18,775 bases of DNA from Candidatus Jordarchaeales archaeon (GTDB lineage Archaea > Asgardarchaeota > Jordiarchaeia > Jordiarchaeales > Freyrarchaeaceae), in assembly GCA_038858525.1 (NCBI GenBank), contig JAWCFL010000030.1:1-18775 (forward strand). The letters are read 5' to 3'. Under the pieces are notes generated by a model. That model was not told where the DNA came from. It did no database searches and saw only the letters and a program-made list of their open reading frames with translations. Every line of letters begins with the position of its first letter. Within the stretch, counting starts at the first letter, position 1. Made by a program: the position numbers and the translations under genes. Below are positions 960 through 18,775 of this stretch, piece after piece.

Positions 960-1754
960 TTATTTTGGTGTTATTCCTGTGAATTTTTGTGGTGGTGTTT
1001 TCTTTTTTTCTAGGAAGTTTTTGCTTCTCTGCTTGAACTCCTCTGTTGTCCATATCATTGCTGTTATGTCTCTTGCGAGCTGCCAGTTTAGCATTGCCAG
1101 GTCAGTCCAGAACTTGAGGCATGACTTGACAACCCTAAAAGCCTGAGGGCTTGTCCTGTCTATTACTTCCAGTGCAAGTTTGCGGGCTTCACCTTCAACA
1201 TCGTTGTCCTCGACTACTCTGTTCACGAGTCCAAGCTGGTAGGCTTCCTCGGCGCTCAGTATGCGCGCTGTGAACAGGAGTTCTCTAGCCCTTTTTTCTC
1301 CAACTATTAGGGGGAGCATCTGGGCGCCTCCTCCCATAGCTGTGGAGCCTACCAGGAGCTCGGGTTGCCCGAACCTAGCTGATCTTCCAGCTACGACGAG
1401 GTCGCACATCATGACCAGTTCGTTTCCCCCAGCGACGCATGCCCCCTTGACGGCGGCGACGACTAGCTTACCTGTCTCCCTCACGAGCTCGAGAAGGCTC
1501 CAGTATGCTTTAAGCCACCTTAACCCGTCCTCAAAGCTTTTCCCCATTATTTCTTTCAGGTCTGCTCCAGCGCTGAAAGCGTTTCCCTCACCAGTAATGA
1601 TGATCGCGCACACTTTGCTGTCCCTGTCTGCTTCGGCAAGGGCATCATGGAGCTCCTTGAGCATTTCCAAGTGGAGGACGTTTAGCCTCTCAGGGTAGTT
1701 CAGTTTCACCCACGCTATCCTTTCGTCTTCGTCCCTCTCGAGCCTAACCTTCAT
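960..1754 (-). CDS. Enoyl-CoA hydratase/isomerase (crotonase) family protein
   Basis: AFSAGADLKE oxyanion loop; AGGNEL and FGQPE carry both canonical catalytic Glu. Start overlaps the upstream dehydrogenase by 11 nt, with GGAGGAGG inside that gene's 3' end. Confidence 0.92.
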   Translation of the reverse strand: MKVRLERDEDERIAWVKLNYPERLNVLHLEMLKELHDALAEADRDSKVCAIIITGEGNAFSAGADLKEIMGKSFEDGLRWLKAYWSLLELVRETGKLVVAAVKGACVAGGNELVMMCDLVVAGRSARFGQPELLVGSTAMGGGAQMLPLIVGEKRARELLFTARILSAEEAYQLGLVNRVVEDNDVEGEARKLALEVIDRTSPQAFRVVKSCLKFWTDLAMLNWQLARDITAMIWTTEEFKQRSKNFLEKKKTPPQKFTGITPK

Positions 1755-2658: not shown

Positions 2659-2872
2659 TGGTTCCACCTCCATCCGCCACAAAAGCAAACGAGATCTATC
2701 GCGGAAGCCGTTTTTTAATGTTCTCTCCGACTCCTCTCATCGAGAAGCATCATGAAGAGTGGCTGAAGCCAGCACGGCGCTGAGACTTTCCCTTAGTGAG
2801 GAAACTCTTTTATGGTCGGAGGACTCTATGACGGATATACGCTTTTGAGTGCTGGGAAGGGAGGTGGTTGGT

Positions 2873-4108: not shown

Positions 4109-4924
4109 CTATCTTCCCTGGAACAATGGCTCCCTTTTCTCGATAAAGGCTCTTACACCCTCCTCGTAATCCTTCGTCTTGGCAGACTCAACCTGCATTT
4201 TTCTTTCTTCTTCGAGATGCTGCCTTATGTCTGTTGCCCGCGTGGCTTGTTCGAGAAGCTTTTTCGTCCTAGCCAGCGCAAGAGCTGGGCCCATAGCAAG
4301 GAGCTTAGCGAGCTTCATAACTTCCTCCATCAACTTTTCGTGTGGAACAACCCTGTTCACTATTCCGAGCTGGAAGGCTTCTTGAGCGTCCACCGTCCTT
4401 CCAGTATAAAAGAGCTCGCCCGCCTTTAATGGGCCTATGAGTCTCGTCAGCAGGTATGTGCCTCCCATTCCAGGTATGAGGCCGAGCCTCACGAAGCTCT
4501 GAGCGAACTTAGCGTTGTCCGAGGCCACAACAATATCGCAGGCTATGGCTAAGTTGAAGGCTGCGCCCATAGCTGGCCCGTTAACCGCCGCTATCACTAG
4601 TTTACTCATTTCTCTTATTTTGAGGGACACTTTGTAGAGTGGCTCTGTCAGCCGGTCCATGAATTCACCCGGCTGCCCCTCCTCGATCGACTTGAACATC
4701 CCCTTAACGTCTCCGCCTGCGCTGAAGGCTCTCCCTTCCCCTGTGATGACCACAACTCTCACCGATTCATCCTCCTCGCACCTTCTAAGGCACTCAAGTA
4801 ATTCGCGTGCAACCTGTTCGTCAAGAGCATTAAGCTTCTCAGGGCGACTTAAAGTTATAACAGCCACACCATCCTCAACGTTAAACCTCAAAGACTCATA
4901 CTTCAACTTGGAAACCTCCAGCAA
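4109..4924 (-). CDS. Crotonase-superfamily protein (PaaG-like), canonical catalytic acids absent
   Basis: RPEKLNAL, AFSAGGDV, AAVNGPAMGA, ACD, LGLIPGMGG, EGVRAF.EKR.P.FQGR. Exact start uncertain. Confidence 0.9.
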   Translation of the reverse strand: MLEVSKLKYESLRFNVEDGVAVITLSRPEKLNALDEQVARELLECLRRCEEDESVRVVVITGEGRAFSAGGDVKGMFKSIEEGQPGEFMDRLTEPLYKVSLKIREMSKLVIAAVNGPAMGAAFNLAIACDIVVASDNAKFAQSFVRLGLIPGMGGTYLLTRLIGPLKAGELFYTGRTVDAQEAFQLGIVNRVVPHEKLMEEVMKLAKLLAMGPALALARTKKLLEQATRATDIRQHLEEERKMQVESAKTKDYEEGVRAFIEKREPLFQGR

Positions 4925-5125
4925 AAGGTGATAAACAAATTACTGAGCGGGGTTATTAGAGTTCCTCTCCATGATCAAATAAGCACGGGAGCGTACAATC
5001 CAAGTCAAGTTTCGCAATCCAAAAAACGAAACTAATGGAGAAGAAAAACATAAAAGCCAGTTAACTGGTCGGCTTCAATGTGACTACAATTGTAGCGTGC
5101 TCTAGCTTCTTTCTTTTTTCCTTCC

Positions 5126-5581
5126 CTAAAATTTAGGGGGGAAGAGCTCTGTTAGCCTAATAATTTTTAAACCCAGAGACTTAACATAGTCCTTAACCGA
5201 TGCCTTAAGTAGGTGCCTGTCCTCAGTCAGCATGTTTCTAGAGTAAAGCACAGCTACTGCCAGGTTTACGGCGTCCGAAGCATAAAGGTCCAGGTCTACT
5301 TCTAGGTCTCTCGCCTTATCTAACAAGCCAGATAGGGGCGCGGCTTCCATAAAGCCCAGGCTAGCCATTTCTCTAAGTAGATTGTATGCCTGAAGGATTT
5401 TCGTTTTAGGGTAATTTGCTTTCACCAAGGCTCTGACAACTTCCAGGTAAGTCCACTCCGAGATTATGAGGGTGAACTTTGCTGAGAGGGTTTCGTCGCG
5501 CAACCTTAAGGCTTCCCTCTCGTGTTCCTCTCCAACCCTAAACCACTTCACGATAACGGACGAATCAACGCATATCTCCAT
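5126..5581 (-). CDS. vapC: PIN-domain (VapC-type) toxin
   Basis: VDSSVIVKW, LEVVRAL, ASDA and LTED supply the four PIN acidic residues. ATG at 5581 lies 1 nt after the antitoxin stop (track start 5617). Confidence 0.9.
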   Translation of the reverse strand: MEICVDSSVIVKWFRVGEEHEREALRLRDETLSAKFTLIISEWTYLEVVRALVKANYPKTKILQAYNLLREMASLGFMEAAPLSGLLDKARDLEVDLDLYASDAVNLAVAVLYSRNMLTEDRHLLKASVKDYVKSLGLKIIRLTELFPPKF

Positions 5582-5582
5582 C

Positions 5583-5828
5583 CTAGCGCTCATCTCCTTC
5601 CTCATGAGACCCGACAACTATTTCTGTTAAGCTTGGCATTCCCTCCGTTCCTTCCCTAACCTCGTTAAATCGTTTTATCAGCTCATCGGTCTTGTATTGC
5701 TTTATTAGTAACTGTAGGGCTTTCGAGAAGGCTTCGGTCTTGCTGCTAAAATATCCTTTCCTAACAAGGTCCTCCACTTCCTTAACCATTTTTTCGTCAA
5801 GCTTCAAGTTTACTTGAACTCTAGCCAT
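5583..5828 (-). CDS. Ribbon-helix-helix (CopG/ParD-like) antitoxin
   Basis: RVQVNLKLDEKMVKEVEDLVRKGYFSSKTEAFSKAL is a strand-helix-helix RHH pattern; acidic C-terminus; directly upstream of the PIN gene; GGAGGT RBS. Confidence 0.85.
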   Translation of the reverse strand: MARVQVNLKLDEKMVKEVEDLVRKGYFSSKTEAFSKALQLLIKQYKTDELIKRFNEVREGTEGMPSLTEIVVGSHEEGDER

Positions 5829-5832
5829 TTAG

Positions 5833-5862
5833 TATACCTCCAAAATAAAGATGTAAGGTATA
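5833..5862. promoter_or_regulatory. 7-bp inverted repeat over the antitoxin RBS/promoter, candidate autorepression operator
   Basis: TATACCT (5833-5839) and AGGTATA (5856-5862), 16-nt spacer. Confidence 0.35.
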
Positions 5863-5974
5863 GATTAAAAGTGTTTCTGTCAGCTATGTGAAGACGTTAA
5901 GGTCCACGTTTCTCTTTGAAATTAACAGCGGCTTTTTAAGGCGAGTTGACGGCTGTGAGTGTGGAGGTGCAGTT

Positions 5975-7582
5975 ATGGCTAGCAGGATACTCAGCGGAGA
6001 GGTTGATTGTTGCGCTGCCATCGTTGTGCTGGATGGATGCAGCATTAGGGCGCTTAAGAGGGCGCATACTCCCGTGATCGATGAAATAGCCAGGTTAGGT
6101 GTTGCCACATTTAAGTGCCGCTCTGTTGCTCCGACCGCTACTTATACGGGGCACGCCTCCATTGTTACCGGCACCGCCCCTAGTGTTCACGGCATTGTAG
6201 GAAATTTCTACTATGATAGGGAGCAGAGGAAGGTGGTGTGGTTCGACGTTGACGACGTTAACGCTCATCTTGATGCGGCAACGCTCTTTGAGGCGGTGGA
6301 GGCTGGAGGATGCGTTGGTGAGCCGGTTACGAGGGGGGCGAGGTTTGTAGTGCCCAAGGAAGAAGTTCAGGCTAGAGACGTGTGGGAACAGGACGCTTAC
6401 GCCATAACGATGGCGGTGAAGATTGTTGAGGAGGAGAGACCTGTCCTGCTCGTTGTGAACCTGCCGGGGGTAGATGGGGTCGGAGAGAGGTATGGCGCTT
6501 CTAGCAGAGAGGCTTCCAGGATACTTGAGGAGGACGACAAACTGATCGGGAAGCTGCAGGATGCTTTAAGGGAGTGTTATGATGATTACTTGCTCGTGGT
6601 GACAGCGGATCACGGTATGACCGACGTGAAGGAGAACGTCAATCTTGAGGAAGAACTGGACGGGCTTGACCCGGTGGTTTGCACATCCCACAGATTCGCC
6701 CACATATACTTGAAAGACGTGATGGAGGCTAAAAGGCGCCTCGAGAAAGACGGGCGGCTTAGCTTGGTTCTTACTCATAGTGAAGCTGAAAGGCTTTCTC
6801 TTCATAACCCTCGGTCTGGAGACTTAATGGTTGCCGCTAGGCCGGGATACGAGCTCAGCAAACAGAGCCTCAGGGGGAGTCATGGTGGCCTAACTAGGGA
6901 TGAAATGCTTGTTCCGCTGGTGGTGAATAAGCCGGAGTACGCTGACTTGGTCCGGGATTGGGCCTCGATAACTGATGTTGTATTAATTGTTAGAAGGTAC
7001 CTTGTCGAGAGAAGGTGTGTTAAGGAAGCTATGCGTCTGCTCAGCGGTGTTGACCCGGCTCACGGATGGAGGCACGTTGAGAGGGTCCTTGCGTGCTCTA
7101 CGCGCCTGGCTTTGAAGTATGGGGCCGACGTGGAGACGGTGAGACTTGCAAGCGTACTTCACGACGTCGGCAAGGGAGTGACGGGGCCAGACCACGTTGA
7201 AGGGAGCATTAATGTTGCAGCCTCGCTTCTACGGGAAGTGCTGCCGGGTGGGAAACTGGAGAAGGTTTTAAGGGCGATTTCAAGCCACCACACCTACCGC
7301 CCGGAAGAACTGAAGGGGCTGGAGGAGGCCATTCTTTGGGATTGCGACAAGCTGGACGCGCTGGGTGTTGTTGGCTTTGCGAGATGCCTTGAGGAGGAGG
7401 GATGGAAAGGTGGGAGTATAAATGACGCGGTGGAGCACTTGAAGAGGGATACCGAAATGTTTTCCCAAAGGATGCACTTCAAGGAGACTAGGCGCCTCGC
7501 GAAGCTAAAGGTTAGGTGGGGTAAACGAGTTGTCAAGATACTGGCGAGGGAGATTGATGGGTTATCAGGCAAATATTCGTAG
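5975..7582 (+). CDS. Fusion: nucleotide pyrophosphatase/phosphodiesterase (alkaline phosphatase superfamily) domain + C-terminal HD phosphohydrolase domain
   Basis: N-part: VVLDG, PTATYTGHASIVTG..PSVHGIVGN, TADHGM, GSHGG. C-part: HG.RHVERV, LHDVGK, DH, SHH, DCDKLDALG. ATG at 5975 follows GGAGGTG (track start 5888). Confidence 0.88.
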   Translation: MASRILSGEVDCCAAIVVLDGCSIRALKRAHTPVIDEIARLGVATFKCRSVAPTATYTGHASIVTGTAPSVHGIVGNFYYDREQRKVVWFDVDDVNAHLDAATLFEAVEAGGCVGEPVTRGARFVVPKEEVQARDVWEQDAYAITMAVKIVEEERPVLLVVNLPGVDGVGERYGASSREASRILEEDDKLIGKLQDALRECYDDYLLVVTADHGMTDVKENVNLEEELDGLDPVVCTSHRFAHIYLKDVMEAKRRLEKDGRLSLVLTHSEAERLSLHNPRSGDLMVAARPGYELSKQSLRGSHGGLTRDEMLVPLVVNKPEYADLVRDWASITDVVLIVRRYLVERRCVKEAMRLLSGVDPAHGWRHVERVLACSTRLALKYGADVETVRLASVLHDVGKGVTGPDHVEGSINVAASLLREVLPGGKLEKVLRAISSHHTYRPEELKGLEEAILWDCDKLDALGVVGFARCLEEEGWKGGSINDAVEHLKRDTEMFSQRMHFKETRRLAKLKVRWGKRVVKILAREIDGLSGKYS

Positions 7583-7753
7583 AAGATTTTTATTGAAGTA
7601 TGTCTTAAACTATGGATGTCTCTTTGTGATAAAGCTTATATTTAGGAACAACACAATTGTTAGTCAGGTGATTTGATTTAAAAATACATTTGTGATGTGA
7701 AGTTTTCAGCTCACAGCCGAACAATTTGGAAAAATCGATCTGGAGGTTGTCGC

Positions 7754-8605
7754 GTGAAGGTTGTTGTGAAGGACAATGAGGTGGATCTGGCGCGCATAAT
7801 CCGTAACGCGTCCCCTGGAGACGAAATACTGCTGGAGAAAGGGGACTATGTTGTCGGTGAGGTTTTCGTCGAGTCAGACCTTACCATAATAGGTAAGGGA
7901 GCCGGCTTAACGAGGCTCCTACTTGATGGTCACGGCTTCACATGCGACGCTGTGAGAAGCTTTAGGGTTGAGGGGTTGTCCTTCGTCGGCTCAAGGGAGA
8001 GTGAAGTTCTTAACGTGAAGTATGGAAGGGTTGAGGCCACCAATTGCGAGTTCACAGGCTGTGAGCTGGCCTCTCTCCACGTCGAAGTGGGAATAGCTAA
8101 GCTTGAGGGGTGCAGCTTCCACCAGAACGGGTACGGCATGCTTCTAGGTGAGGGCAGTATAGTCTCCGTCAAGAGCTGCAAGTTCTCGGAGAACGAGGTT
8201 GCCGCAGTATGGATAGAGGGGGGAGACCTTAGGGTTGAGGAAAGCACCTTCCAAGAGAATGGTTTAGGTATCGCAACCACTTGGAGCTCGAGGGCTAAGA
8301 TAATCAGTAACTCATTCTTAAACCACACGATAGACCCAGCGATTACTGTTATGGAGAGGGCTGATGCAATCATAACCGGAAACGTCTTTAGCAACTGCCG
8401 CTGCAGCATTATGGCTTCACGCTACTCCACTGCGGTGATTGAAGATAACACTTTCATAGCGTGTGGAGACGCGCGAACACCCGTCCTATCGATCAGCGGC
8501 AACTGTAGCATTAGGGGGAACATCCTGGAGTCGAATAGATTCTCGGAGCTACGCGGCTTACCCATAGCTACATGCGTTGGAAGCATTAGCGAGAGACAAC
8601 CTTAA
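7754..8605 (+). CDS. Right-handed parallel beta-helix repeat (NosD/CASH-like) protein
   Basis: PGDEILLEKGDY, LTIIG.G, and repeated 'C.F..N..G' / 'I.GN.F..C' units. GTG at 7754 follows GGAGGT (track start 7697). No signal peptide visible. Confidence 0.8.
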   Translation: MKVVVKDNEVDLARIIRNASPGDEILLEKGDYVVGEVFVESDLTIIGKGAGLTRLLLDGHGFTCDAVRSFRVEGLSFVGSRESEVLNVKYGRVEATNCEFTGCELASLHVEVGIAKLEGCSFHQNGYGMLLGEGSIVSVKSCKFSENEVAAVWIEGGDLRVEESTFQENGLGIATTWSSRAKIISNSFLNHTIDPAITVMERADAIITGNVFSNCRCSIMASRYSTAVIEDNTFIACGDARTPVLSISGNCSIRGNILESNRFSELRGLPIATCVGSISERQP

Positions 8606-8888
8606 ACAATGGATCCGAAACGCGTTCCCCCCTGCATTTCGGACATCTTGACGGCTTCTTGGGCTTATCGGAGCTAAAGACGTAGCCGCACTTCAAGCAG
8701 CGTGGAGGAACCATCACGAGCTGCCACTCGGACTTCTGCAGGGAGCGAGCTATGTGCTTAAGGTCATCATAAACATCCTTCCGGTCTAGCTCTAGAAGCA
8801 GAGAAATCTGCTCTGCGCTCAGGGGGGTGTCACTCTCCTTTAACAGTCTAAGAATTTTTTCGCGTCGTGTCTCCCAGAGCCCAGTCAT
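8586..8888 (-). CDS. Archaeal transcriptional regulator with HTH + Zn-ribbon (COG3357-like)
   Basis: TRREKI..LL, LSAEQI..LL, VY.DL.HIARSL, then PPRC.KCGY.F...KPSRCPKC. Confidence 0.88.
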   Translation of the reverse strand: MTGLWETRREKILRLLKESDTPLSAEQISLLLELDRKDVYDDLKHIARSLQKSEWQLVMVPPRCLKCGYVFSSDKPKKPSRCPKCRGERVSDPLFKVVSR

Positions 8889-8901
8889 AAAACCACCAAG
8901 T

Positions 8902-9627
8902 TCACAACTTTATGACTAATGGGGTGAAGCCTCTCTTGTCGCATGCAACGTTGAACACCTTAACTCCTCTCACCACGCTTTCAAGGCAATCATCCCGGCA
9001 CTTGTGGCTGTGCCCATGGAACACGTAGTCCACTCCGTACGCCTCTAAGAGCTCCATGAAGACTGACGAGCCGCAGACGCCTATGAAAGGGTCTCCTTTA
9101 ACCGTTTCTGGCGTTGGAGAGAAATGCATAATAACAACCTTCACCTCGGCATTCTTGATGCTTTTTAACCCAGTCTCAAGCTTCTTCAACTCTATAGCGG
9201 TCGCCTTTACTGCTCTCTCGCGTCTCTCGCGCTCAACGTCGGCTTTAGGGCTGAAGGAGTAGTCATACCACCCCCTTGTGCCAGCAATCCCGAGATCCAA
9301 GTCCTCCAAGTAGTAGCCTTCCCCATCCAGCAATTTGAGATAGTAGGGAGTCGACAGGACCCTTCGCAGGTTCGGGTCGTACCACCTGTCATGATTACCC
9401 ACCACCATAAACCGGTACCTAGCGCTAGCCGAGTATAACATGTCGAGAGCCTGCTTTACACTATCATCGTACCGTTTAGCCATCGAGAGGTCGCCGCAGA
9501 AAAGGAAGACGTCGACCGGAGAATAGTCAAGGCTCCTCACGCAGCGCTCAATGTTTTCAAGAGTGAAAACATCCCTGAACTTCCCCTTAATTCCCAAGTG
9601 AAAGTCACCAGTTACAGCCAAAAGCAA
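8902..9627 (-). CDS. Calcineurin-like metallophosphoesterase (Icc-like)
   Basis: GDFHLG, CGDL, VGNHD, MHFSP and FHGHSH motifs. TTG at 9627 follows GGAGGT (track start 9675). Confidence 0.9.
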   Translation of the reverse strand: MLLAVTGDFHLGIKGKFRDVFTLENIERCVRSLDYSPVDVFLFCGDLSMAKRYDDSVKQALDMLYSASARYRFMVVGNHDRWYDPNLRRVLSTPYYLKLLDGEGYYLEDLDLGIAGTRGWYDYSFSPKADVERERRERAVKATAIELKKLETGLKSIKNAEVKVVIMHFSPTPETVKGDPFIGVCGSSVFMELLEAYGVDYVFHGHSHKCRDDCLESVVRGVKVFNVACDKRGFTPLVIKL

Positions 9628-9784
9628 ACCTAAACCTCCAGCCGCGTGAAGGCGAAGCCACAAGGCTTCCTTCAACAGTCTCCTTCAAATGCACGAATAA
9701 ATACATTTCATAAGATGCCATTTTTAACAATAAACCTTAACTATAAGGCCCAAAAACGAAATTTTTCTTTCATTTGATTGAGCA

Positions 9785-9979
9785 CAGCGAAAAAGGGAGG
9801 AGGGCAGTAGAATAGGATGTGGTAACAACTTCTTCGCTGGTAGCTTGTCAGAAGAGCGCCCAGACTCGCTACCGTTGCTAGGTGCTTCTTTCCTGTCCTT
9901 CAGCAAAGTAAGCAACCGGCGTTTGTTTCCGGGAGCACCTATTAGGAGCAGGCACTAGTTAGCTTGGGCGCTGTTTTTT
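9785..9979 (+). ncRNA. Candidate structured intergenic RNA (unassigned family)
   Basis: Complementary pairs found by eye: CAGCGAA/TTCGCTG, AGCGCCCA/TGGGCGCT, TAGGTGCTTC/GGAGCACCTA, GGTAGC/GCTACC, followed by a T6 run. No match to any RNA family I recognise. Confidence 0.25.
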
Positions 9980-10061
9980 CTTAGCCGCCGATAAGCGAAA
10001 AGTAGATAAGCTGATCATTGACGACCTGAAACCTAATTATTTTGTTGTCGGAGGAACGCGT

Positions 10062-10907
10062 ATGGTTACTGGGGTGTTCTTTCACCCCGAGTTTAAGGGC
10101 AAGGACTGGCCTGTTATAGGGGATAAGTTTGCAGGGTTCCCCGAGGCCTTTGGTAGCATGCTTAACGACGAGAAAATAGCCTTCTTTGAGCCTAAGGAGG
10201 TTTCCGAGGAGCTTCTACTTAAAGTTCATACGAGAGAACTGGTCGAGAAACTGAAGAAGGCATGGTACTGTAGGGGTGCCCTTCTTTCGGTTGGCGGGTG
10301 CTTGGAGGCTGCAGAGAAAATATTAATAGGTGAGCTGGAGAACGCATTGGTCTTCGTGGTCGCAGCAGGTCACCACGCAGGCCCCTCAAGCGCTTGGGGT
10401 GGAACATACGTTTCATGTACTGGTCCTACCATAGCTTACCTGAAGGAGACCTATGGAGGGAGGAGGCGCTACGCGATACTTGACACTGACTCGCACCACG
10501 GTGACGGGACGAGGGCGATCTTCATGGGGCAACGAGACATCCTCCATGTATGCTTCTGCAGTCAAAACCTCGTTGAGGATGAGGGAACGAAGGTTGACGT
10601 GGATGCCGGCTGGAACACGAGCGACGAAGACTACTTGAGGCTCGTGGAGGAGGAGTTCGTTCCGAGGGCTAAAAAGTTCAGGCCGCACATCATAATGCAC
10701 AAGCTTGGACACGACGTCTGTCAAGGCGACTATGGCGACAGAGGGTTGACCGAGAAGGCCTGTGTGGAGACCGTGCGTATCGTCGCAGACTTAGCGGACG
10801 AAATGTGTGATGGAAGGTACCTTATTCTGACGCATGGAGGAAGCAGGAGGGACCTCGCCGAAAAAATATACCCTGAAGCAGTAAGGATACTTGCAAAAAT
10901 AACGTGA
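10062..10907 (+). CDS. Histone-deacetylase (HDAC/AcuC/APAH) family hydrolase, divergent
   Basis: GHHAG His pair, ILDTDSHHGDGT Zn motif, KF.P..I...GHD third Zn ligand, LLKVH. GGAGG upstream of ATG. Confidence 0.85.
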   Translation: MVTGVFFHPEFKGKDWPVIGDKFAGFPEAFGSMLNDEKIAFFEPKEVSEELLLKVHTRELVEKLKKAWYCRGALLSVGGCLEAAEKILIGELENALVFVVAAGHHAGPSSAWGGTYVSCTGPTIAYLKETYGGRRRYAILDTDSHHGDGTRAIFMGQRDILHVCFCSQNLVEDEGTKVDVDAGWNTSDEDYLRLVEEEFVPRAKKFRPHIIMHKLGHDVCQGDYGDRGLTEKACVETVRIVADLADEMCDGRYLILTHGGSRRDLAEKIYPEAVRILAKIT

Positions 10908-10943
10908 GCAGGGGGGCTGAAGCAGAGCGAAGGAACGTTTATT

Positions 10944-12479
10944 TTACTTTATTTTTTCGCCGCAATAGGGGCAGTAGTTCGCTTCCTCTGGGATGCTACG
11001 CCCGCAAGCACGACACTCAGTCGCTTTAAGCTTGTATTCGTACTGAGTGACGCTTTTCCGGGGGGCTCCGCCACCCAGAGCGTAAAACCAAAGTGTAAAC
11101 CCTGTCAGGTAAAGAGACACAGCAATACTTGCCAAGAAGCCTGCTACTAGGCATGCCCCAAAAACAGCTGGGAAAATAAAAACGACAAGGCTAAAGTCTA
11201 GAGGAGGATACGGCAGCAGGATGGATAAAAAGGGAAATACTAGAGAGCCGGCGAGCTGGAGCTGTATGGGAATCATTGTTGAGAGTATGTAGTTGATGAG
11301 TTGACTAATAATAAGGTATATTATTCCGAACATCAGGAAGAGGAGGAAGGTTTTCAGCTTTGCTCCGTTGGTGAGCTCCTTGCTTCGCCGCAGTGATTCT
11401 CGTACTCCTGCATTTTCCACGATGACTGCTTGTGGGGCTAGAGCGTAGACCGTTGCGAAGTATATTCCTGGTATTATGAGGAGAAGTAAGCCTACGCCTA
11501 CTATGAGTCCCACTATTATTGTTGTAGCTGTGAGCTTAAGGTAACGCCTGAAACCAATTTCAATGCTTTCGAGTAGTGCTGGGCGCCCCTGCTCAACTAT
11601 CACGTGTACAAAGGCTATGACGATGCCCGCAACCATGACGAGCAGCAGGAAGGTGACTAGAAGTGACGCCACGGTAGAAGCTAGGGATACCTGGCTCAGT
11701 ATGGCTGGTGGGGTGAAGGAAAGTGATTGAATCTGTGTTAGAATATACGAGAGCCTGTCTGCAATGTATTGTATCGAGAGGAGAAATCCGACTGGCAACA
11801 TAATGTAGAATAGCGCCTTTGGTGTGAGCCTAAGAGCTTCGACAAACACGTCTCCAGCTCCCTCAAGGGTCTCGGGAGGCGAAGGTTTGAAAAGCGCTCC
11901 TATGATGGTGAATAAAAGAATAAGGATGCCGATGAAACGTAAAGAGTATAATAGAGGAATAAAGGGGTTGCTTTGAAACGTTAGGAACGTGACACTGCTT
12001 TGAGTCATTATCAGTGCTGGCTGGCTCCCCTCATTCTTCCATACGAGAAGCACCATGTAGTCATTTGCCGGCGGATAGGTGAAGAAAGAAGTTGAGGATA
12101 CTTCGGTGTCCAGGAGTGTGTCCTGCCAGGAGGGTAGGATGCCCGGTTCTATAACTGGGACAGGGTGGATGCCATAAATCTTGAATTTAACTGGCTGGTT
12201 CGACGCCACCACACCGAAAACGCAGCTCAAACGTGAGGGTAACATTAAAGGCTGATGGGCTTCTTCTCCAGGAGAGATATATATCAGGGAGAAGCCATCT
12301 GAGGGGATGTTCGGAAGGTAAAAAGAACCTATGATCGTAGGGTTATACGTGTGAGAGGACACGTATGGTATCAGATTCGGTGAAACAGACAACATGGTTA
12401 AGGAGGAGATTATTAGAAAAGCGCAAAAAACAATGGAACCTTTATGGATGCCTGAAAAAGACTTCTCACCATTGCTCAT
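10944..12479 (-). CDS. Multi-pass membrane protein with N-terminal extracytoplasmic domain and C-terminal zinc ribbon
   Basis: One N-terminal hydrophobic segment, a soluble stretch, about 7 hydrophobic segments including 'IVEN.G..ESL.RS.EL..G', and CRACG...YCPYCG at the end. Confidence 0.8.
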   Translation of the reverse strand: MSNGEKSFSGIHKGSIVFCAFLIISSLTMLSVSPNLIPYVSSHTYNPTIIGSFYLPNIPSDGFSLIYISPGEEAHQPLMLPSRLSCVFGVVASNQPVKFKIYGIHPVPVIEPGILPSWQDTLLDTEVSSTSFFTYPPANDYMVLLVWKNEGSQPALIMTQSSVTFLTFQSNPFIPLLYSLRFIGILILLFTIIGALFKPSPPETLEGAGDVFVEALRLTPKALFYIMLPVGFLLSIQYIADRLSYILTQIQSLSFTPPAILSQVSLASTVASLLVTFLLLVMVAGIVIAFVHVIVEQGRPALLESIEIGFRRYLKLTATTIIVGLIVGVGLLLLIIPGIYFATVYALAPQAVIVENAGVRESLRRSKELTNGAKLKTFLLFLMFGIIYLIISQLINYILSTMIPIQLQLAGSLVFPFLSILLPYPPLDFSLVVFIFPAVFGACLVAGFLASIAVSLYLTGFTLWFYALGGGAPRKSVTQYEYKLKATECRACGRSIPEEANYCPYCGEKIK

Positions 12480-12598
12480 TATACCACCAACAAGTTAGGC
12501 CCGAAAGGCGCAATATTCAAACAATTACCACAGCTTTTGAAGAACATGTTATCGTAACAATCAAGACAACAGCTCACTTTTTCCCTCCGCAACTCCAT
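12479..12598 (-). CDS. Unannotated 39-aa Cys-rich small protein
   Basis: MELRREKVSCCLDCYDNMFFKSCGNCLNIAPFGPNLLVV. AGGAGGAGGTG lies 5 nt before the ATG; its TAA overlaps the next ATG (TAATG at 12481-12477); two CxxC motifs. Confidence 0.55.
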   Translation of the reverse strand: MELRREKVSCCLDCYDNMFFKSCGNCLNIAPFGPNLLVV

Positions 12599-13056
12599 AA
12601 AGGCACCTCCTCCTAAACATCAAAGCAATGCCCTCCTAACAAACAGTAAACAGTAGAACCGCAGGACCTCTAACTTTTTTGAGGCACCTCCCTTAAAAGG
12701 ATTTGCTTGCATGCAGAGCAAGTAGCCGCATGACTTACCACAAGTCTACTTGAGCAGATTCCAACTAAAACGGTTTCTCGGCACTCCATCTGAATGCAAT
12801 TGTTACTCTAGCTCTTCTCGCGCTTTTTCTCGCCGATCTGTTCGCATACGGCGACGATAGGCTTAGGTCTCCCGGGCATCTGTTTAAATTTTAGGGTTTT
12901 TAGTCGCCTTGAAAACCATTGAAGTAGGGAACGGACAGTGAAAAAGTAACTATCGATAACGGGAACCTTTCTCTTTAGGGCTACGCCCTTCAGGAATTTT
13001 GTTATTGAATCTACTGGGAGCTGGCTGTTCCTTCATTGTAGCAGGATGATTACGCG

Positions 13057-13881
13057 TTAAGGTCTTGCCTGTGGAGTGGTGAGTACGCTTTTCCGGACGA
13101 GTGACACTTCTCTTCTTTTCAGTTGGAGGGTTAGCTCCTTATCTATGGCGTCCTTAACCGCTTTCCTGATGGCATACCCTCCTATGTGGAGATATGTGTC
13201 TCCTATGGCTTTGTCATACTGCATAGATGCGGTGCATGGATAGGCATGGTGAGCCTCAGATATTTTCTCGTTCAGCCTGTAAATCCTGGTGAGCTTTATC
13301 TGCTGCATGACGTAGAAGGTGCTCCCGCAGGGCGCTGTTCTGAGAACACGCCCCTTAGTTATCAGGTCTCCCTGTATTTCAACCTCAACTACTGGCCTGC
13401 CGACCTTACACTTCTTGATGAAGAGATCTATTATGTCGTTCGTTCCTCTTTCCTCTAGGACGCAAAATGGCCTTGGGAAGGCGCTCGCAACACCTATCTC
13501 CTCGAGGCTTCTTTCCACCTGCTTTTGGAGCCCAACAGGACACCAGCTTCCATCCTCTATAGGGACAATAACGCCCTTAACCCCCATGCTTTCAGCCAAA
13601 ACGGATATGCTTGCAAGAACATCCTGGTGCACTCCAACTACGATTAGCAAGTCACACTTAGGCGGGTTTCTCGGAAAGTAATCCTCAGGGTTCTCCAAGT
13701 AGGGGGGTAAGTCTTGGGGGATCTTGTGGAGACCATAAATGTAATTTGCGAATGAACCATAATCACGCCTGCAGTGCTCGCATGCGTCGCCGCACGACGT
13801 GCAAAACGTGGAAAAGTTGATCAGGTTACCGGCGACCTTCTCCCCAAAATCATCTCCATAAAGAACATATATTCTCAACAT
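13057..13881 (-). CDS. DUF166 family protein with CxxCxxxCxxC insert
   Basis: DLLIVVGVH, VIVP, GL.KQ, P.PFC.L, G.P.VEV, VLR.APCGST, HHAYPC.ASM, LH..G are DUF166-type motifs (recognised by eye). Confidence 0.75.
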   Translation of the reverse strand: MLRIYVLYGDDFGEKVAGNLINFSTFCTSCGDACEHCRRDYGSFANYIYGLHKIPQDLPPYLENPEDYFPRNPPKCDLLIVVGVHQDVLASISVLAESMGVKGVIVPIEDGSWCPVGLQKQVERSLEEIGVASAFPRPFCVLEERGTNDIIDLFIKKCKVGRPVVEVEIQGDLITKGRVLRTAPCGSTFYVMQQIKLTRIYRLNEKISEAHHAYPCTASMQYDKAIGDTYLHIGGYAIRKAVKDAIDKELTLQLKRREVSLVRKSVLTTPQARP

Positions 13882-13915
13882 GAAACCCTCTCGAATTCAT
13901 CCAAGTTTTAAGTCC

Positions 13916-13941
13916 ACATTAATACAATATATTCTTAATGT
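13916..13941. promoter_or_regulatory. AT-rich inverted repeat upstream of the DUF166 gene
   Basis: ACATTAA (13916-13922), N12, TTAATGT (13935-13941). Confidence 0.3.
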
Positions 13942-14199
13942 TAATATTGACTTAGCTTAAATCCCATTTTTAATAATAAAAAATAAAAAAAGAGGTTCTG
14001 CTTGTGGCTGGTAAATGGCGTCCCAAGCTTAAATTAAAGATTAATAAGATTTTTGAAGAAACCAACTCTCCTTCAGCTTTTCCGAGAAGTCATACGCAGA
14101 GAAAAACAAAGTTGCAGTTAGCTGAACGGTTCAAATAGATATTTTAGAAAGATATTAATAGCGTGTTGGTTGAGTTGGTGAGGGAAAAAGGGTGAAAGG

Positions 14200-14487
14200 T
14201 TGAGGGTAAAGGTTTCCTACATCCACATAATAGCTAGGGAGATCGGGGTGAAGGAAGAGGAGGTTGAAGTTGAAGGAAATATGAACTTGAAGGAGCTACT
14301 CGGTCTATTGACTGAAAGGCATGGTGAAGCCTTCAAGAAGTACGTTTACGATAGTGACAAAGGTGAGGTTAGGGGTTACGCTATAATAACGGTAAACGGG
14401 AAAATTATTCAGAGGAGGAACGTGGAGGGGGTAAAGCTAGCGGAGGGGGACCGCGTGTTTTTCGGCATAGGGGCTGCAGGAGGGTAG
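14200..14487 (+). CDS. MoaD/ThiS-family ubiquitin-like sulfur carrier (SAMP-like)
   Basis: Beta-grasp pattern (VKVSY, L.ELL..L, I.VNG, L.EGD.V) ending in a C-terminal Gly-Gly. TTG start with GGTG upstream. Confidence 0.88.
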   Translation: MRVKVSYIHIIAREIGVKEEEVEVEGNMNLKELLGLLTERHGEAFKKYVYDSDKGEVRGYAIITVNGKIIQRRNVEGVKLAEGDRVFFGIGAAGG

Positions 14488-14633
14488 CTATCGGAGATAG
14501 GTGTGTACTTTTCGCTTTCCTCCCGATTCCTTGAGACTATGGAAGGATGCATTATTCGTATTCCTTCTCGTCTCTTAAAGCCGGGTATTTAACTTGGAGG
14601 TCTTTATTTGAACCATGAGTGGAAGTTGGGTTT

Positions 14634-15227
14634 TTATGGCTTCTGCTTTTGTTGCCAGAGTTTTCCCTTGTATTGTTGTATTACTGGGCATCCTAGACAC
14701 TTGTTTTTCTGGAAGTACTGGCAGTCCCTGCAACGGGTTTTTGACCCGCAGGGAGGGTTTTCTGTTGCTTTAAAGCTCATTTTCATCGGGACAATGAACT
14801 CTTTCGCTGATGATATTATTATGTTGAACTCTACGCTCTGAACGTCGCTATTTGGCCTTATGTGGGCATCCACTATGGTTTCTATCGTTTCTATGTTCTC
14901 GCTTAGGAAAAGCATGCACACGTTACTCCTCCCCGACACTAGAAAACCATTGACAAAATATGGGCAATCCTTGAAGGATTCGAGTAGGCCTAGCGGGTTT
15001 CTCGTAGTAATATCCACCTTCGCCAAGTAGACACCCATCTTCGCCGGGTTTACTCCTACCAGTTTCGATATAATGCCCAAAGACCTGAGCTTTCTCAACC
15101 TCACAGCGACTGACGGCTGAGAAATCCCTATCCGTTCCGCCATGTATTCCTGTGAAGCGTCAGGGTCGTCACTCAAAATGGTTATTATGGCTTTGTCTCT
15201 ATCATCCAACTTTTCAAAGAAAGACAT
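14634..15227 (-). CDS. Lrp/AsnC-family transcriptional regulator with C-terminal Cys cluster
   Basis: LDDRDKAII..L..DP..SQE.MA..IGISQPSV..RL.KL HTH, RAM-like domain, tail C-x5-C-x2-C-x7-C-x2-CP. Second ATG (15227) preferred; track start 15251. Confidence 0.85.
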   Translation of the reverse strand: MSFFEKLDDRDKAIITILSDDPDASQEYMAERIGISQPSVAVRLRKLRSLGIISKLVGVNPAKMGVYLAKVDITTRNPLGLLESFKDCPYFVNGFLVSGRSNVCMLFLSENIETIETIVDAHIRPNSDVQSVEFNIIISSAKEFIVPMKMSFKATENPPCGSKTRCRDCQYFQKNKCLGCPVIQQYKGKLWQQKQKP

Positions 15228-15371
15228 TAGCACACACCCTTCATTACTCATAGCCAGTGTGTTCGCTATTTATTATTTATTAACTTATTAACCTGAATAA
15301 TACATTAATAATAAAAGATGCGATGCTATTTTCTACCGAGTCAGTTAAGCGAACTTTAGCGTAAAAGTAAT

Positions 15372-16082
15372 CTAAAGGATGACTTCGAGGTCTGGATCGT
15401 AGAGGCGCATTAATGAGGCGGAGGGGTCATAATATGACGCGATTGCCTTAACTTCTACACCTGCTCTTTTTGCACCTAGAAGTAGACTGTAGAAGTCCAA
15501 GTCCACTGAAATGTTTGGTTTAAAGGCGGCCACTCCAGGCAGGGCAGCCATGAAGATGATTATGCTTCTTACGCCACTTGCAGCGCAACAAGTAAGTTCC
15601 TTGACATGCCTTCTCCCTCTGAGCGAGGGGCAGTCGGGATACATTGCATATTCTCCGCCTCTCAGAACGGCGCTTTTCACCTCCACATATGCATGCTCAC
15701 CACTCTCCTTTCTCAGAAGGTAGTCTATAACTGAGCTGCCCAGCTTAACATTTCGTCTTGATACCCTCCAGCCTTTAAGCCACGGTATGAGGCCGGCGTC
15801 CAGCCATGCTTCGAAGGCTTTCATTTGGAGATGGGTGTCTATTACTGCACCGACCCCCTGATCTTCCACCGCAAAGAGCCTATAGCTGGTTTTCTCCGAC
15901 CTCTTAGCAACGCAGAAACCCTGCCTTCCTTCGACTAGAAGGTCGAGCAGTCTCCCTGTGTTGTTAAGGTAAGCCCTTGAGTGCGCTCCCTCAACGATGA
16001 CTTCAACAACGAACCTGTTCAGCCTCTTTCCAATAACACATCTTAATGCACCCTCGACCATCAAAGGATCCTTCTCAGTCAT
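15372..16082 (-). CDS. sfsA: SfsA family DNA/RNA nuclease
   Basis: RLNRFV, LNNTGRL.DLL, IDY, YVEVKS, YPDCPSLRGRRHV.EL, AGVEV.A. Confidence 0.92.
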   Translation of the reverse strand: MTEKDPLMVEGALRCVIGKRLNRFVVEVIVEGAHSRAYLNNTGRLLDLLVEGRQGFCVAKRSEKTSYRLFAVEDQGVGAVIDTHLQMKAFEAWLDAGLIPWLKGWRVSRRNVKLGSSVIDYLLRKESGEHAYVEVKSAVLRGGEYAMYPDCPSLRGRRHVKELTCCAASGVRSIIIFMAALPGVAAFKPNISVDLDFYSLLLGAKRAGVEVKAIASYYDPSASLMRLYDPDLEVIL

Positions 16083-16277
16083 TTCGACACCTCACAGCTA
16101 CATTTAACATTTAAAGAAGTAGAACTAATAGTTAAAATAGTAAAAATGCTCCGTCGCCTTTCAGGAAATTCGTTGGTGGAGTAATATTTGTTAAGTGACT
16201 TTTGGGATCACCGGGTTTTGACGAAGAGTTTAATTAGGGATCTATTTTTTTGAGATTATGGTTTGGAGGTTTTAGTT

Positions 16278-17075
16278 ATGGAGCTTAGAGAGGTGCCAAA
16301 GGAAGTCGACGAAGTTACTATTACCCGGGCGATTGTAAGATCTGCCGCCGAGGACTGGATCAGGATTGCCGACTCGGATGTGGTTGTTGTTGGTGCCGGC
16401 CCATCAGGACTAACAGCTGCTAGGTATGTTGCGGAGGCGGGCTTCAGAACTGTAGTGTTCGAGAGGAGGCTCTCGTACGGTGGAGGTATAGGCGGGGGCG
16501 GTATGCTTTGGCACAAGGTGGTTGTCTCCCAGCCAGCTGACGAAATACTCAGAGAGGTTGGTTGCAGGCTTGAGAAGTCAGAGGACGGCGTCTATGTTGT
16601 GGACGCGGCGGAGATGCTGGCGCGCCTAGCAACTGCAGCGATAGATGCCGGAGTCAAAGTAATTTTCGGCGTCACAGTCGAGGATCTGATGTACGCGCTG
16701 AACCCACTTAGGATAACGGGAGTCGTTGTTCAGTGGAGCGCGGTAAACCTTGCAGGACTTCACGTTGACCCTGTGGCCGTGAGGGCGAAGGCGGTAATAG
16801 ACTGCACGGGGCATGACGCTGAAGTTCTGAGAGTTGCTTCAAAGAAGATCCCTGAGCTTAATCTAGAGGTTGTTGGCGAAAGGTCGATGAATGCGCCCTC
16901 AGGGGAAAGGTTTGTCGTCGAGAAGACGGGCGAGGTTTGCCCCGGACTCTATGTTTCAGGAATGGCCGTATGCGCCCTGCACGGTGGCCCAAGAATGGGG
17001 CCAATTTTTGGAGGAATGCTGCTGTCAGGCAAAAAAGTGGCAGGCGAGGTTGTTAGGCGCTTAAGCAAGTATTAA
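16278..17075 (+). CDS. thi4: Thi4 thiazole synthase, His-type (sulfide-dependent)
   Basis: VGAGPSGL, ER..SYGGG..GGGM, LHVDP, DCTGHD, PGLYVSGM, GGPRMGPIFGGMLLSG. ATG at 16278 follows GGAGGT (track start 16263). Confidence 0.95.
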   Translation: MELREVPKEVDEVTITRAIVRSAAEDWIRIADSDVVVVGAGPSGLTAARYVAEAGFRTVVFERRLSYGGGIGGGGMLWHKVVVSQPADEILREVGCRLEKSEDGVYVVDAAEMLARLATAAIDAGVKVIFGVTVEDLMYALNPLRITGVVVQWSAVNLAGLHVDPVAVRAKAVIDCTGHDAEVLRVASKKIPELNLEVVGERSMNAPSGERFVVEKTGEVCPGLYVSGMAVCALHGGPRMGPIFGGMLLSGKKVAGEVVRRLSKY

Positions 17076-17097
17076 CTCTTAAGCAAAGTATTAACTC
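17060..17097 (+). repeat. Near-perfect 18/19-bp tandem duplication spanning the thi4 stop codon
   Basis: CTTAAGCAAGTATTAACT (17060-17077) followed directly by CTTAAGCAAAGTATTAACT (17078-17096). Confidence 0.9.
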
Positions 17098-17098
17098 A

Positions 17099-17875
17099 TT
17101 AAGACGAAGAGCTGGTTTGACCATTCTTCCTCCACATCTTTGTAACCCTAGCTCTTACTCCGCTTCTCTCCTCGAAGACTGCCTCTACTTCAACCAGCTC
17201 AGGTTCGACAGCTTTCACCACATCACTCAATATTGTGGCTACAACCTCCTCGTGATGCATGAACTTACCCTTAAAGGTTTCAAAGTAGTCTTTGAGGGAC
17301 TCGTACTCTATAAGCCTCCCTCTAGGAACATATCTCACTTTTATCGTCGCCCTGTCCAGCGTCCCCGTGACAGGGCATAGGCACGTGAAGCCGCTGTAAG
17401 TGAAAGTGGCTTCATGCTCTCCCTGTAAGTTGGGTAGCGTCCTCAACCCAGCACGCTCTTTTCCGAGACCTTCGAGAATCATAAGGAGTTCATTTACAGT
17501 TTTCGCAACGTGACTTGATACATATAGAGGCCACGGCGACCTGACTTCCCCTGGGCAATACGCCACAACGGGCTTCCCCCTGAGAGCTGAGAGGAGAGCT
17601 TCAACGGTAGCTCCAAAGCTCGGCCTAGTGGCGATGAGGACTACCACGTCCGCCTCCCTGCACTTCTCAAGATCCCTCAGGACAATATTTCTGCATAGCT
17701 CCGGGGCATCTCTGAAGTCACTTATACCACTATAGTCGGCGTCCTCGAACTGATCCACGACGACGTATCCAGCCAACCTAAGACGAGCTTGGAGACGCGT
17801 AATCTCCTCTTTTCCACCGTAACCCACCGAGCCACAGACGATAACTCTCAACCCGCCACTCAACACGTCCACCAC
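17099..17875 (-). CDS. Fusion: nucleoside 2-deoxyribosyltransferase/DNPH1-like N-glycosidase domain + QueF/QueF-like T-fold domain
   Basis: N-part: VCGS..GG, RDLE..READVVV...T.PSFG..VE, KPV, SPW. C-part: L.T.PN, FTCLCPVTGTLD, YVPRG, EYESLKDY, HHEE, EV...F..R.G. True start may be the TTG at 17851. Confidence 0.85.
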   Translation of the reverse strand: MVDVLSGGLRVIVCGSVGYGGKEEITRLQARLRLAGYVVVDQFEDADYSGISDFRDAPELCRNIVLRDLEKCREADVVVLIATRPSFGATVEALLSALRGKPVVAYCPGEVRSPWPLYVSSHVAKTVNELLMILEGLGKERAGLRTLPNLQGEHEATFTYSGFTCLCPVTGTLDRATIKVRYVPRGRLIEYESLKDYFETFKGKFMHHEEVVATILSDVVKAVEPELVEVEAVFEERSGVRARVTKMWRKNGQTSSSS

Positions 17876-18081
17876 ACAGAAAAATAAAAAGGAAACAAAT
17901 TAACCTTGCTGAAGACGACACGAACCTTTAAGATTTAACCAGCAACATCCAAATGCTTAGCTTTTCCTCGCAATCACCAAGTTAAATCACTTTTGCCGCT
18001 ATTCGTGAACAGCTATGAAAGGGCAGATTTAATAGGATCAACCCACTGATGAGTTCTAAGGAAAGCTTTGGGGTGTTTGCT

Positions 18082-18775
18082 TTGGAAATTTGGCGTTACA
18101 TAGACTTCGATTTAGTTGACCCGCCGACTAGCGGAGCATTGGCGGAGGCTATGCTTATTGCGCGCGCTGAAGGAAAATGCCCTGACACGTTCTTCATCTA
18201 TAGGAGGAAGCCGCCCGCGGTATCCATAGGATACTTCCAAGCGGTAAAAAACACGGTTGACCTTGCAGCGTGCCGCGAGCTGGGAGTAGAAGTGAGCAGA
18301 AGGATAACTGGTGGAGGAGCAATATACTCCGACGAAAACGGGATAATATATTCAATAGTGGTGAGTGAGGGCAACCCGAAGATTCCAAGAAACATAGCTG
18401 AGTCTTACAGTGTCCTTTGCAGAGGGCTAATCGATGCCCTGAAGATTCTCGGCTTGGACGCGGTCTTCCAGCCGATCAACGATATACTTGTAGGCGGAAA
18501 GAAGGTGAGCGGCAGCTCGCAGACAAGGCGGCGAGGCGTAGTCCTCCACCATGGAACCCTTCTCGTCAGGGCGGACATAGAGACAATGAAAAGAGTCCTC
18601 AAGATCCCTGAGGAAAAAATGAGTGACAAGGCTGCTAAAAGCTTAGAGGAAAGGGTCACAAGCTTAGAGAAGCTTCTCGGAAGAGAGGTAAGCATGGATG
18701 AAGTCAAGGAAGCAGTGAGGAAGGGCTTTGAGAAAGCCCTGGAAGTGAAGTTCGAGGACGGCGAGCTAACCGAGT
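18082..18775 (+). CDS. lplA: Lipoate-protein ligase A family, catalytic domain (partial, runs off the right edge)
   Basis: Manual translation: WRYID, PAVSIGYFQ, RRITGGGAIYSD, NDILVGGKKVSG, HHGTLL, ERVTSL. TTG at 18082 follows GGGGTG (alternative ATG at 18049). Absent from the track because it has no stop in the window. Confidence 0.92.
   Translation, partial: MEIWRYIDFDLVDPPTSGALAEAMLIARAEGKCPDTFFIYRRKPPAVSIGYFQAVKNTVDLAACRELGVEVSRRITGGGAIYSDENGIIYSIVVSEGNPKIPRNIAESYSVLCRGLIDALKILGLDAVFQPINDILVGGKKVSGSSQTRRRGVVLHHGTLLVRADIETMKRVLKIPEEKMSDKAAKSLEERVTSLEKLLGREVSMDEVKEAVRKGFEKALEVKFEDGELTE

Follow-up and report, generated by a model that had tools for sequence, protein, structure and literature searches.

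Introduction

Almost all archaeal tRNAs carry archaeosine at position 15. Its synthesis is costly, and we know of no route that recovers archaeosine or its precursor from turnover. Queuosine salvage is well studied in bacteria and eukaryotes: Qng1 (DUF2419), a monomeric queuosine-5'-monophosphate N-glycosylase of the HhH-glycosylase fold, frees a 7-deazaguanine base for re-use by a tRNA transglycosylase and performs no later chemistry on it. Two T-fold enzymes act on the nitrile preQ0. Unimodular QueF (Bacillus subtilis YkvM, PDB 4F8B) is an NADPH-dependent preQ0 reductase and to our knowledge the only known nitrile reductase. QueF-L (Pyrobaculum calidifontis, PDB 5JYX) is a single-domain protein that depends on NH4+, acts on preQ0-tRNA and replaces ArcS. 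The N-glycosidic bonds of nucleotides are cleaved by DNPH1/Rcl and by MilB/BlsM, N-glycosidases of CMP or hydroxymethyl-CMP (hmCMP). Here we describe a gene that joins a DNPH1/MilB-type domain to a QueF-type domain in a single open reading frame (ORF). It lies in an 18,775-nucleotide stretch of DNA, called the window below (contig JAWCFL010000030.1 in its full length, positions 1 to 18,775 of the forward strand), from the Asgard archaeon Candidatus Jordarchaeales. We tentatively read its product as an enzyme that recycles or cleans up 7-deazaguanine nucleotides.

The fusion differs from each of these systems. Unlike QueF, it carries an N-glycosidase domain and occurs in archaea; unlike QueF-L, it co-occurs with ArcS and RaSEA. 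Qng1 is a functional analogy only, since its fold is unrelated. A model that saw the sequence alone (the original prediction) knew of no described enzyme that combines a nucleoside deoxyribosyltransferase (NDT)-type domain with QueF. A full-text literature search agreed: we found no description of archaeosine salvage or of an NDT/DNPH1-QueF fusion.

Results

The fusion is conserved in two archaeal lineages

A near-identical database protein, P0002, spans both domains, and a word-indexed search recovered 31 clusters at 47–87% identity, nearly all of 236–258 amino acids (aa) and covered over both domains. The original prediction had considered that the domains might be separate and unlinked in all relatives. 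The architecture search shows instead that the fusion is conserved, and its conservation at 47–87% identity in two archaeal lineages rules out a chance fusion or a gene-call artefact. When 1.8 billion representatives were searched exhaustively with HMMER, no more than three fused proteins appeared at 50% clustering, the next matches being stand-alone N-domains and ordinary QueFs. The AlphaFold DB fold clusters list no full-length fused representative.

In a sample of 301 Asgard genomes, the fusion was found in 5/5 members of the source family and in 0/296 others, including 0/6 of the sister family. Among Archaeoglobi, 32 of 96 species genomes hold it, one being the fully sequenced genome of the cultured Archaeoglobus profundus DSM 5631 (G323; flanking proteins ADB58667.1 and ADB58666.1). 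In a maximum-likelihood tree whose root is not established, the Asgard fusions form one clade (100/99) whose sister is the main group of Archaeoglobaceae; a further group, of Archaeoglobales sequences, branches outside. This topology suggests one transfer of the fusion between two thermophilic lineages.

The C-terminal domain keeps the QueF thioimide site and loses the NADPH motif

Pfam PF14489 (QueF) matched the fusion protein at residues 174–246 (E 2e-18). NCBIfam TIGR03139 (QueF-II) was barely passed, with 88.7 bits against a cut-off of 86.9, which explains why relatives are publicly annotated as 'preQ(1) synthase'. This PGAP-type label is probably misleading for the archaeal fusions because archaea, so far as we know, are not known to make queuosine. 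The C-terminal half matched B. subtilis QueF (4f8b) at E 1e-13, with 29–31% identity, and QueF-L (5jyx) at E 1e-9. An AlphaFold2 (AF2) model of the fusion protein, built on 28 relatives, reached a pLDDT of 88 and a pTM of 0.77. Its residues 142–258 superposed on QueF with Z 17.7 and on QueF-L with Z 16.9 (VIA-align; TM by target 0.9 for QueF-L), confirming that the three share the unimodular T-fold. The structure prediction called for by the original prediction thus gave superpositions on QueF and QueF-L, and also on Rcl and MilB (see below).

A column-by-column alignment set 30 fused proteins against 128 representatives of stand-alone QueF. C167, D174, E190, Y197, H208-E209 and R237 were invariant in the 30 fused proteins; C167, D174, H208-E209 and E190 are the counterparts of Cys55, Asp62, His96-Glu97 and Glu78 of B. 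subtilis QueF, all of which are therefore kept. The neighbouring positions tell a different story. Position 191, Ser79 in B. subtilis QueF and Leu or Ser among QueFs, is Tyr in every fused protein. At position 192, the equivalent of K80, Glu was found in 30/30 fused proteins and Lys in 119/128 QueFs; at position 195, the equivalent of K83, the fused proteins have Asp or Lys and 120/128 QueFs have Lys. Position 207 is His in 30/30 fused proteins and Phe (Phe95 in B. subtilis) in 107/128 QueFs. In the PRGG segment, which becomes EERSG, positions 235–236 are Glu-Glu and position 238 is Ser in all fused proteins (Gly in 120/128 QueFs).

The motif E(S/L)K(S/A)hK(L/Y)(Y/F/W), Glu78 included, defines QueF and is held responsible for NADPH binding (PMC5372742). 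The fused proteins do not match it: they read E-Y-E-S-L-x-x-Y, and the region turns acidic. The original prediction had placed a T-fold domain with Cys167, Asp174 and an HEE segment here and had described the NADPH motif as degraded to EYESLKDY and PRGG to ERSG; the residues are where it put them, and the comparison of fused proteins with QueFs bears out the degradation. It erred on 'TLD', which it took for a QueF-L-like feature: this segment is not conserved in the family, and TGxxD is. From the charges at these positions, we infer that the pocket suits NH4+ or an amidinium better than NADPH.

QueF-L has likewise lost the NADPH motif, carries Glu at the K80 position and keeps the Cys, Asp and His-Glu residues, and the thioimide chemistry of the fusion is probably the same. 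The two differ at the Glu190 site. Free preQ0 is held at its pyrrole N9 by Glu78 in B. subtilis QueF; in a gap-free alignment the tRNA-acting QueF-L has Ala at this site, whereas the fused family keeps Glu. On sequence grounds, retention of this N9-H-binding residue speaks for a free base as the substrate of the fused enzyme. The net charge of the C-domain (−1.3 versus −0.4 in ordinary QueFs) gave no signal of tRNA binding.

One divergent fused relative, P0045 (39% identity; L085:1421-2161 (+)), keeps EYESL, HHE and FEPRSG, and its gene adjoins that of RNase HII.

The N-terminal domain is of the DNPH1/MilB type

Pfam PF05014 (Nuc_deoxyrib_tr) matched the fusion protein weakly (E 0.004; 17.7–19.3 bits versus a gathering score of 28.8), and stand-alone relatives of the N-domain (35–45% identity) scored above the cut-off, at 29–37 bits. 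Searched against solved structures, the N-terminal half matched DNPH1/Rcl (E 2e-5); a family profile of fused and stand-alone members also ranked DNPH1/Rcl first (5e-6), followed by MilB (0.014) and the NDTs (0.06). The predicted structure has the flavodoxin-like NDT fold, with residues 6–141 superposing on NDTs at Z 14–16, on MilB at 12.1 and on Rcl at 11.2 (VIA-align).

Profile alignment supported the NDT/DNPH1 pattern with D68, E92, CGS and SPW that had been read from the sequence. The Gly-rich loop CGS(V/I)GYGG is conserved in the family; D68 is conserved in at least 90% of the N-domain sequences, two stand-alone Methanophagales proteins being different; S86, G88 and E92 do not vary among fused and stand-alone relatives, the Ser lying six residues (−6) and the Gly four residues (−4) before the Glu. 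The Gly-rich loop, ribose Asp, Ser-x-Gly and Glu nucleophile are thus shared with DNPH1/Rcl and MilB/BlsM at identical spacing. The structure of MilB with hmCMP shows the phosphate held by Ser97 and Gly99 and the ribose by Asp78; the catalytic Glu103 was mutated to obtain this complex. Nucleoside-specific NDTs carry Asp at the −6 position, where the N-domain has Ser; a 5'-phosphorylated substrate is therefore the better inference for this domain.

The domain also has features of its own. The Tyr of the DNPH1 YFCGS segment is not kept: as previously read, Ile12 takes its place and aligns on the Tyr of Rcl, and the wider N-domain family has Val, Ile, Leu or Met. The domain thereby differs, with Ile or Val, from both DNPH1 (Tyr) and MilB (Phe). 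An insert particular to this family, DYSxIxDFRD, is likewise conserved, and so is an (S/T)PWP motif.

Stand-alone N-domain proteins of ∼134 aa occur in many Nitrososphaeria, Methanophagales, Aenigmatarchaeota and others, DPANN archaea among them. No QueF gene was found within 6 kb of 35 such loci, and no QueF domain was found anywhere in five genomes with a stand-alone form. It follows that some function of the N-domain is independent of QueF. A word-based search found no short stand-alone relatives of the C-domain.

The stand-alone proteins share the motifs VCGSIGYGG ... DFRD ... PS(F/Y)G..E ... (S/T)PWP (loci L035, L040, L034, L031, L055 and ∼30 more), and the loci examined showed no conserved informative neighbour. 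The source genome also holds a weak second NDT-like ORF of 165 aa (C6:10062-10301 (-)), which matches the N-domain part of the family profile at E 7e-7 and is present in two relatives as well.

In Archaeoglobi the fusion is linked to a YpgQ-like gene and a transporter gene

At the Archaeoglobi loci examined, a gene for an HD-domain protein starts within the last codons of the fusion gene, and G362 and G366 (the P0012 genome), at least, carry fusion and HD as one ORF of 406–417 aa. A half-size major facilitator superfamily (MFS) gene follows the HD gene. In A. profundus, fusion, HD and half-size MFS genes stand in this order with 4-bp overlaps. The best solved relative of the HD partner is B. 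subtilis YpgQ (PDB 5DQV, E 4e-33), a pyrophosphohydrolase of (d)NTPs that depends on Mn and acts preferentially on dGTP and dATP. The gene set reads as a breakdown or recycling route, in which the predicted steps would be NTP to NMP (HD), NMP to base (DNPH1-like) and base chemistry (QueF-like), with a transporter.

The partner gene is not adjacent in the source genome. Its closest homologue there (41–42% identity) lies on a 5.5-kb contig, at C61:3012-3539 (-), and no homologue of the MFS partner was found in that genome. Within the window, a 564-aa ORF at 5888-7582 (+) combines an HD domain, 32–38% identical to the Archaeoglobi YpgQ-like partner, with a type I nucleotide pyrophosphatase/phosphodiesterase domain (PF01663); this ORF lies 10 kb from the fusion gene on the opposite strand.

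Archaeosine synthesis is intact in the source genome and appears incomplete in many Archaeoglobi holders

The source genome (2.09 Mb, 92.7% complete) encodes ArcTGT and ArcS (433 bits), the latter adjoined by RaSEA (328 bits). The original prediction had argued that a QueF-L role would be favoured if no other archaeosine synthase was present. The outcome was negative, and given ArcTGT, ArcS and RaSEA in the same genome we reject the fusion as the organism's tRNA archaeosine synthase. A DpdA-like tRNA-guanine transglycosylase (TGT) paralogue, DUF6610 (DpdA4), a bacterial-type Tgt and YhhQ were not found in this genome; the lack of DpdA and DpdA4 matches weakens the suggestion that the fusion supplies DNA modification.

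We scored preQ0 synthesis genes in the Archaeoglobi. Neither QueD nor QueE was found in 18/32 holders of the fusion, as against 15/64 of the other Archaeoglobi, a difference with a nominal Fisher p of 0.003 among relatives that are not independent. ArcTGT is kept in all 17 tested holders without QueD/QueE, and most have an ArcS-like paralogue. The complete A. profundus genome has a lone QueC (L080:6211-6927, +) and keeps ArcTGT and a YhhQ homologue; it gave no PTPS/QueD match even at E 1 and no QueE orthologue. Judged by gene content, de novo preQ0 synthesis appears to be lost in the A. profundus lineage. A related metagenome-assembled genome (MAG), G328, has an 83-aa QueE remnant beside QueC. 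Because QueD/QueE were not found and ArcTGT is kept in many holders, these patterns suggest, though only suggest, that many fusion holders rely on 7-deazaguanine that they scavenge, so that recycling within the cell would be of use.

A bacterial-type tRNA-guanine(34) transglycosylase was found in 56/96 Archaeoglobi, 55 of them with TIGR00430 scores of 414–589 bits (cut-off 307). It is rarer among fusion holders (10/32) than among the others (46/64). Stand-alone QueF was not found in any of the 96 Archaeoglobi. Of these genomes, 46 have bacterial-type Tgt without any QueF domain; bacterial-type Tgt as a requirement for the fusion is rejected on this ground. The presence of this Tgt is a hint that position 34 may carry preQ0 or a Q-like modification in these Archaeoglobi. 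In two loci examined, Tgt lies beside a YhhQ-type transporter gene, between archaeal genes (mer, aspS): L082:5835-7031 (+)/6998-7714 (-) and L084:5949-7163 (-)/5078-5818 (-).

Discussion

The fusion points either to a salvage or clean-up pathway that would be new or to a member of the QueF family with a new cofactor or type of reaction. We give a little less than even credence to the reading that it is a bifunctional enzyme that would recycle or clean up 7-deazaguanine nucleotides, with Cys167 chemistry that does without NADPH. Where a YpgQ-like HD enzyme is present (overlapping or fused in Archaeoglobi, encoded elsewhere in the source genome), it would convert a (d)NTP or NDP to the 5'-monophosphate. 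Glu92 of the N-domain would then cleave the N-glycosidic bond of the nucleoside 5'-monophosphate to yield ribose-5-phosphate and a free 7-substituted 7-deazaguanine base; Qng1-dependent queuine salvage likewise starts from a 5'-monophosphate. The freed base would pass to the QueF-type domain, where Glu190 would bind N9-H and His208-Glu209 the pyrimidine edge, and Cys167 would attack the 7-substituent to form a thioimide. Since acidic residues stand where the NADPH motif has lysines, a cation (NH4+ or amidinium) would be more likely than NADPH to serve as second reactant or to leave.

The most economical version would run the QueF-L chemistry in reverse, turning archaeosine base (the amidine, G+) into preQ0 (the nitrile) and NH3. 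The preQ0 so formed would be the only base that ArcTGT accepts, since this enzyme takes preQ0 and not G+ base (PMC5485725). Archaeosine or preQ0 nucleotides from tRNA turnover or necromass would thus be trimmed by the HD enzyme and cleaved, and the G+ base returned as preQ0 to ArcTGT. That this is the core of a recycling pathway is a more specific claim, which we hold to be possible but doubtful. If true, it would be the first pathway to recycle archaeosine or preQ0 in Archaea and their equivalent of queuine salvage, and reversal of QueF-L on a free base would be a new reaction for the T-fold family. The salvage or sanitising role put forward in the original prediction thus stands in part: the partner genes, the kept Glu190 and the QueD/QueE-less holders fit it, and the tRNA archaeosine synthase role is excluded by ArcS and RaSEA.

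Several observations weigh against recycling, some of them against its chemistry. NH4+ gave no reaction with the thioimide that QueF-L forms on free preQ0. Experiments define the NADPH site of QueF only poorly; together with the kept Arg237, Tyr197 and catalytic set and the TIGR03139 pass, this leaves room for reduction with NAD(P)H. The N-domain substrate may be a general nucleotide and need not be a deazaguanine nucleotide, because the five genomes mentioned above have the stand-alone form and no QueF domain. The N-domain of P0045 has lost the Gly-rich loop and the catalytic Glu. Others concern need and context. De novo preQ0 synthesis is complete in the source genome (FolE2, QueD, a QueE-like radical SAM enzyme and QueC), where the fusion gene lies between thi4 and lplA without a pathway neighbour. 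A YhhQ-type preQ0 importer occurs in 78/96 Archaeoglobi genomes. The association with missing QueD/QueE ignores relatedness and MAG incompleteness, and at least one case, G363, is a contig-end artefact.

We weighed other explanations for the same features. The C-domain could be a nitrile reductase that turns preQ0 into preQ1 with NADH, with NADPH bound differently or with another hydride donor; the N-domain would then supply preQ0 or do unrelated housekeeping, and the preQ1 would go to an unknown acceptor or to a bacterial-type Tgt. Among profiles and solved structures alike, the nearest relatives are true QueFs (TIGR03139, 4f8b); Cys, Asp, His-Glu, Glu190, Tyr197 and Arg237 have been retained; exchanging Lys for Glu is a classic route from NADPH to NADH preference; and 10/32 Archaeoglobi holders do have a bacterial-type Tgt. 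However, the source genome and A. profundus have neither bacterial-type Tgt nor DpdA, and thus no known user of preQ1; Tgt is rarer among holders than among other Archaeoglobi and is common without QueF; and four positions around the motif are acidic in every fused protein. We therefore consider reduction unlikely, though it deserves to be taken seriously. The fusion could also be a QueF-L-type archaeosine synthase for preQ0-tRNA, with the N-domain as a tRNA-binding or assembly module. Loss of the NADPH motif, Glu at position 192 and a very good fold match (Z 16.9, TM by target 0.9) are what such an enzyme would show. Yet ArcS and RaSEA co-occur with the fusion in the source genome and in Archaeoglobi, whereas the distribution of QueF-L is described as inverse to that of ArcS and GAT-QueC (PMC5485725). 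Moreover, Glu190 is invariant where QueF-L has Ala, and the full catalytic set of the N-domain shows that it is not a mere scaffold. This explanation appears very improbable.

An anabolic role would make the N-domain a transferase: guanine would leave a (deoxy)nucleotide, and a 7-deazaguanine base that the QueF domain makes or holds would take its place. The resulting deazapurine nucleotide would be a metabolite, signal or antimetabolite that the MFS protein exports. Enzymes of the NDT superfamily work through a covalent ribosyl-Glu intermediate that, as established for NDTs, can be transferred to another base; NDTs gave the best structural Z scores for this domain, and in Archaeoglobi an MFS gene comes next. 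However, the Ser/Gly pattern of phosphate binding favours the hydrolase branch (DNPH1, MilB), as does the sequence profile, a YpgQ-like pyrophosphohydrolase partner fits breakdown better than synthesis, and the single-copy gene sits in core-genome contexts with no biosynthetic cluster, all of which makes base exchange quite improbable. We attach hardly any weight to a supply of modified bases or nucleotides for 7-deazaguanine DNA modification. Archaeal viruses do combine QueF with DNA transglycosylases, but the source genome gave no match to a DpdA-type TGT paralogue or DpdA4, and the housekeeping contexts lack mobile or defence neighbours. Between recycling and these alternatives, the function is directly testable in A. 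profundus DSM 5631, which is cultured and sequenced and has the fusion in an operon with the HD and MFS genes.

Gene structure and setting in the window

The ORF check agreed with the original prediction on a single 258-aa ORF, which includes its stop at 17099; it added the strand, which is minus and had not been given, and a GTG start at 17875. No rival long frame was found within 17099-17875. The coordinates of the gene and its features are collected in Table 1.

Table 1. Features of the fusion gene, in window coordinates
Feature	Position	Strand	Comment
Whole 258-aa ORF	17099..17875	-	DNPH1-like domain, short linker and QueF-type T-fold domain
N-domain, residues 9-139	17459..17851	-	NDT/DNPH1-superfamily flavodoxin-like fold
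I12	17840-17842	-	Aligned at the active-site Tyr of Rcl
CGSVGYGG loop, residues 14-21	17813..17836	-	Counterpart of the DNPH1 CGSIRGG phosphate loop
D68	17672..17674	-	Aligned to the ribose-binding Asp of DNPH1 and MilB (Asp78)
S86-F-G88-A-T-V-E92	17600..17620	-	Spacing as MilB Ser97/Gly99 (phosphate) and Glu103 (nucleophile)
S113-P114-W115	17531..17539	-	P-W invariant, S/T conserved across the N-domain family
Linker, residues 140-145	17441..17458	-	Short linker between the two domains
C-domain, residues 146-250	17126..17440	-	Unimodular QueF-type T-fold
C167	17375..17377	-	B. subtilis QueF Cys55, thioimide nucleophile; 30/30 fused, 128/128 QueFs
D174	17354..17356	-	QueF Asp62, general acid/base
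EYESLKDY	17285..17308	-	Replaces the QueF motif E(S/L)K(S/A)hK(L/Y)(Y/F/W)
H207-H208-E209	17249..17257	-	H208/E209 equal QueF His96/Glu97; H207 replaces the stacking Phe95
FEERSG	17159..17176	-	Replaces F(N/T)(P/V)RGG: Arg kept, two Glu gained, Gly to Ser (30/30)

The thi4 gene is convergent with the fusion gene at a distance of 23 bp, and the lipoate-protein ligase gene lplA is divergent from it across an AT-rich spacer of 173 bp. No conserved neighbours were found in the source lineage; the window has thi4, lplA and sfsA. The neighbours in relatives all differ from these (FEN1, a CTP-transferase-like gene or RNase HII). At the loci examined, the fusion gene is single-copy and lies in core-genome or housekeeping contexts, with no mobile or defence neighbours. 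A DUF166 gene lies 3–4 kb from the fusion both in the window, at 13057-13881 (-), and in one Archaeoglobi relative, at L011:5004-5657 (+), which may be a coincidence.

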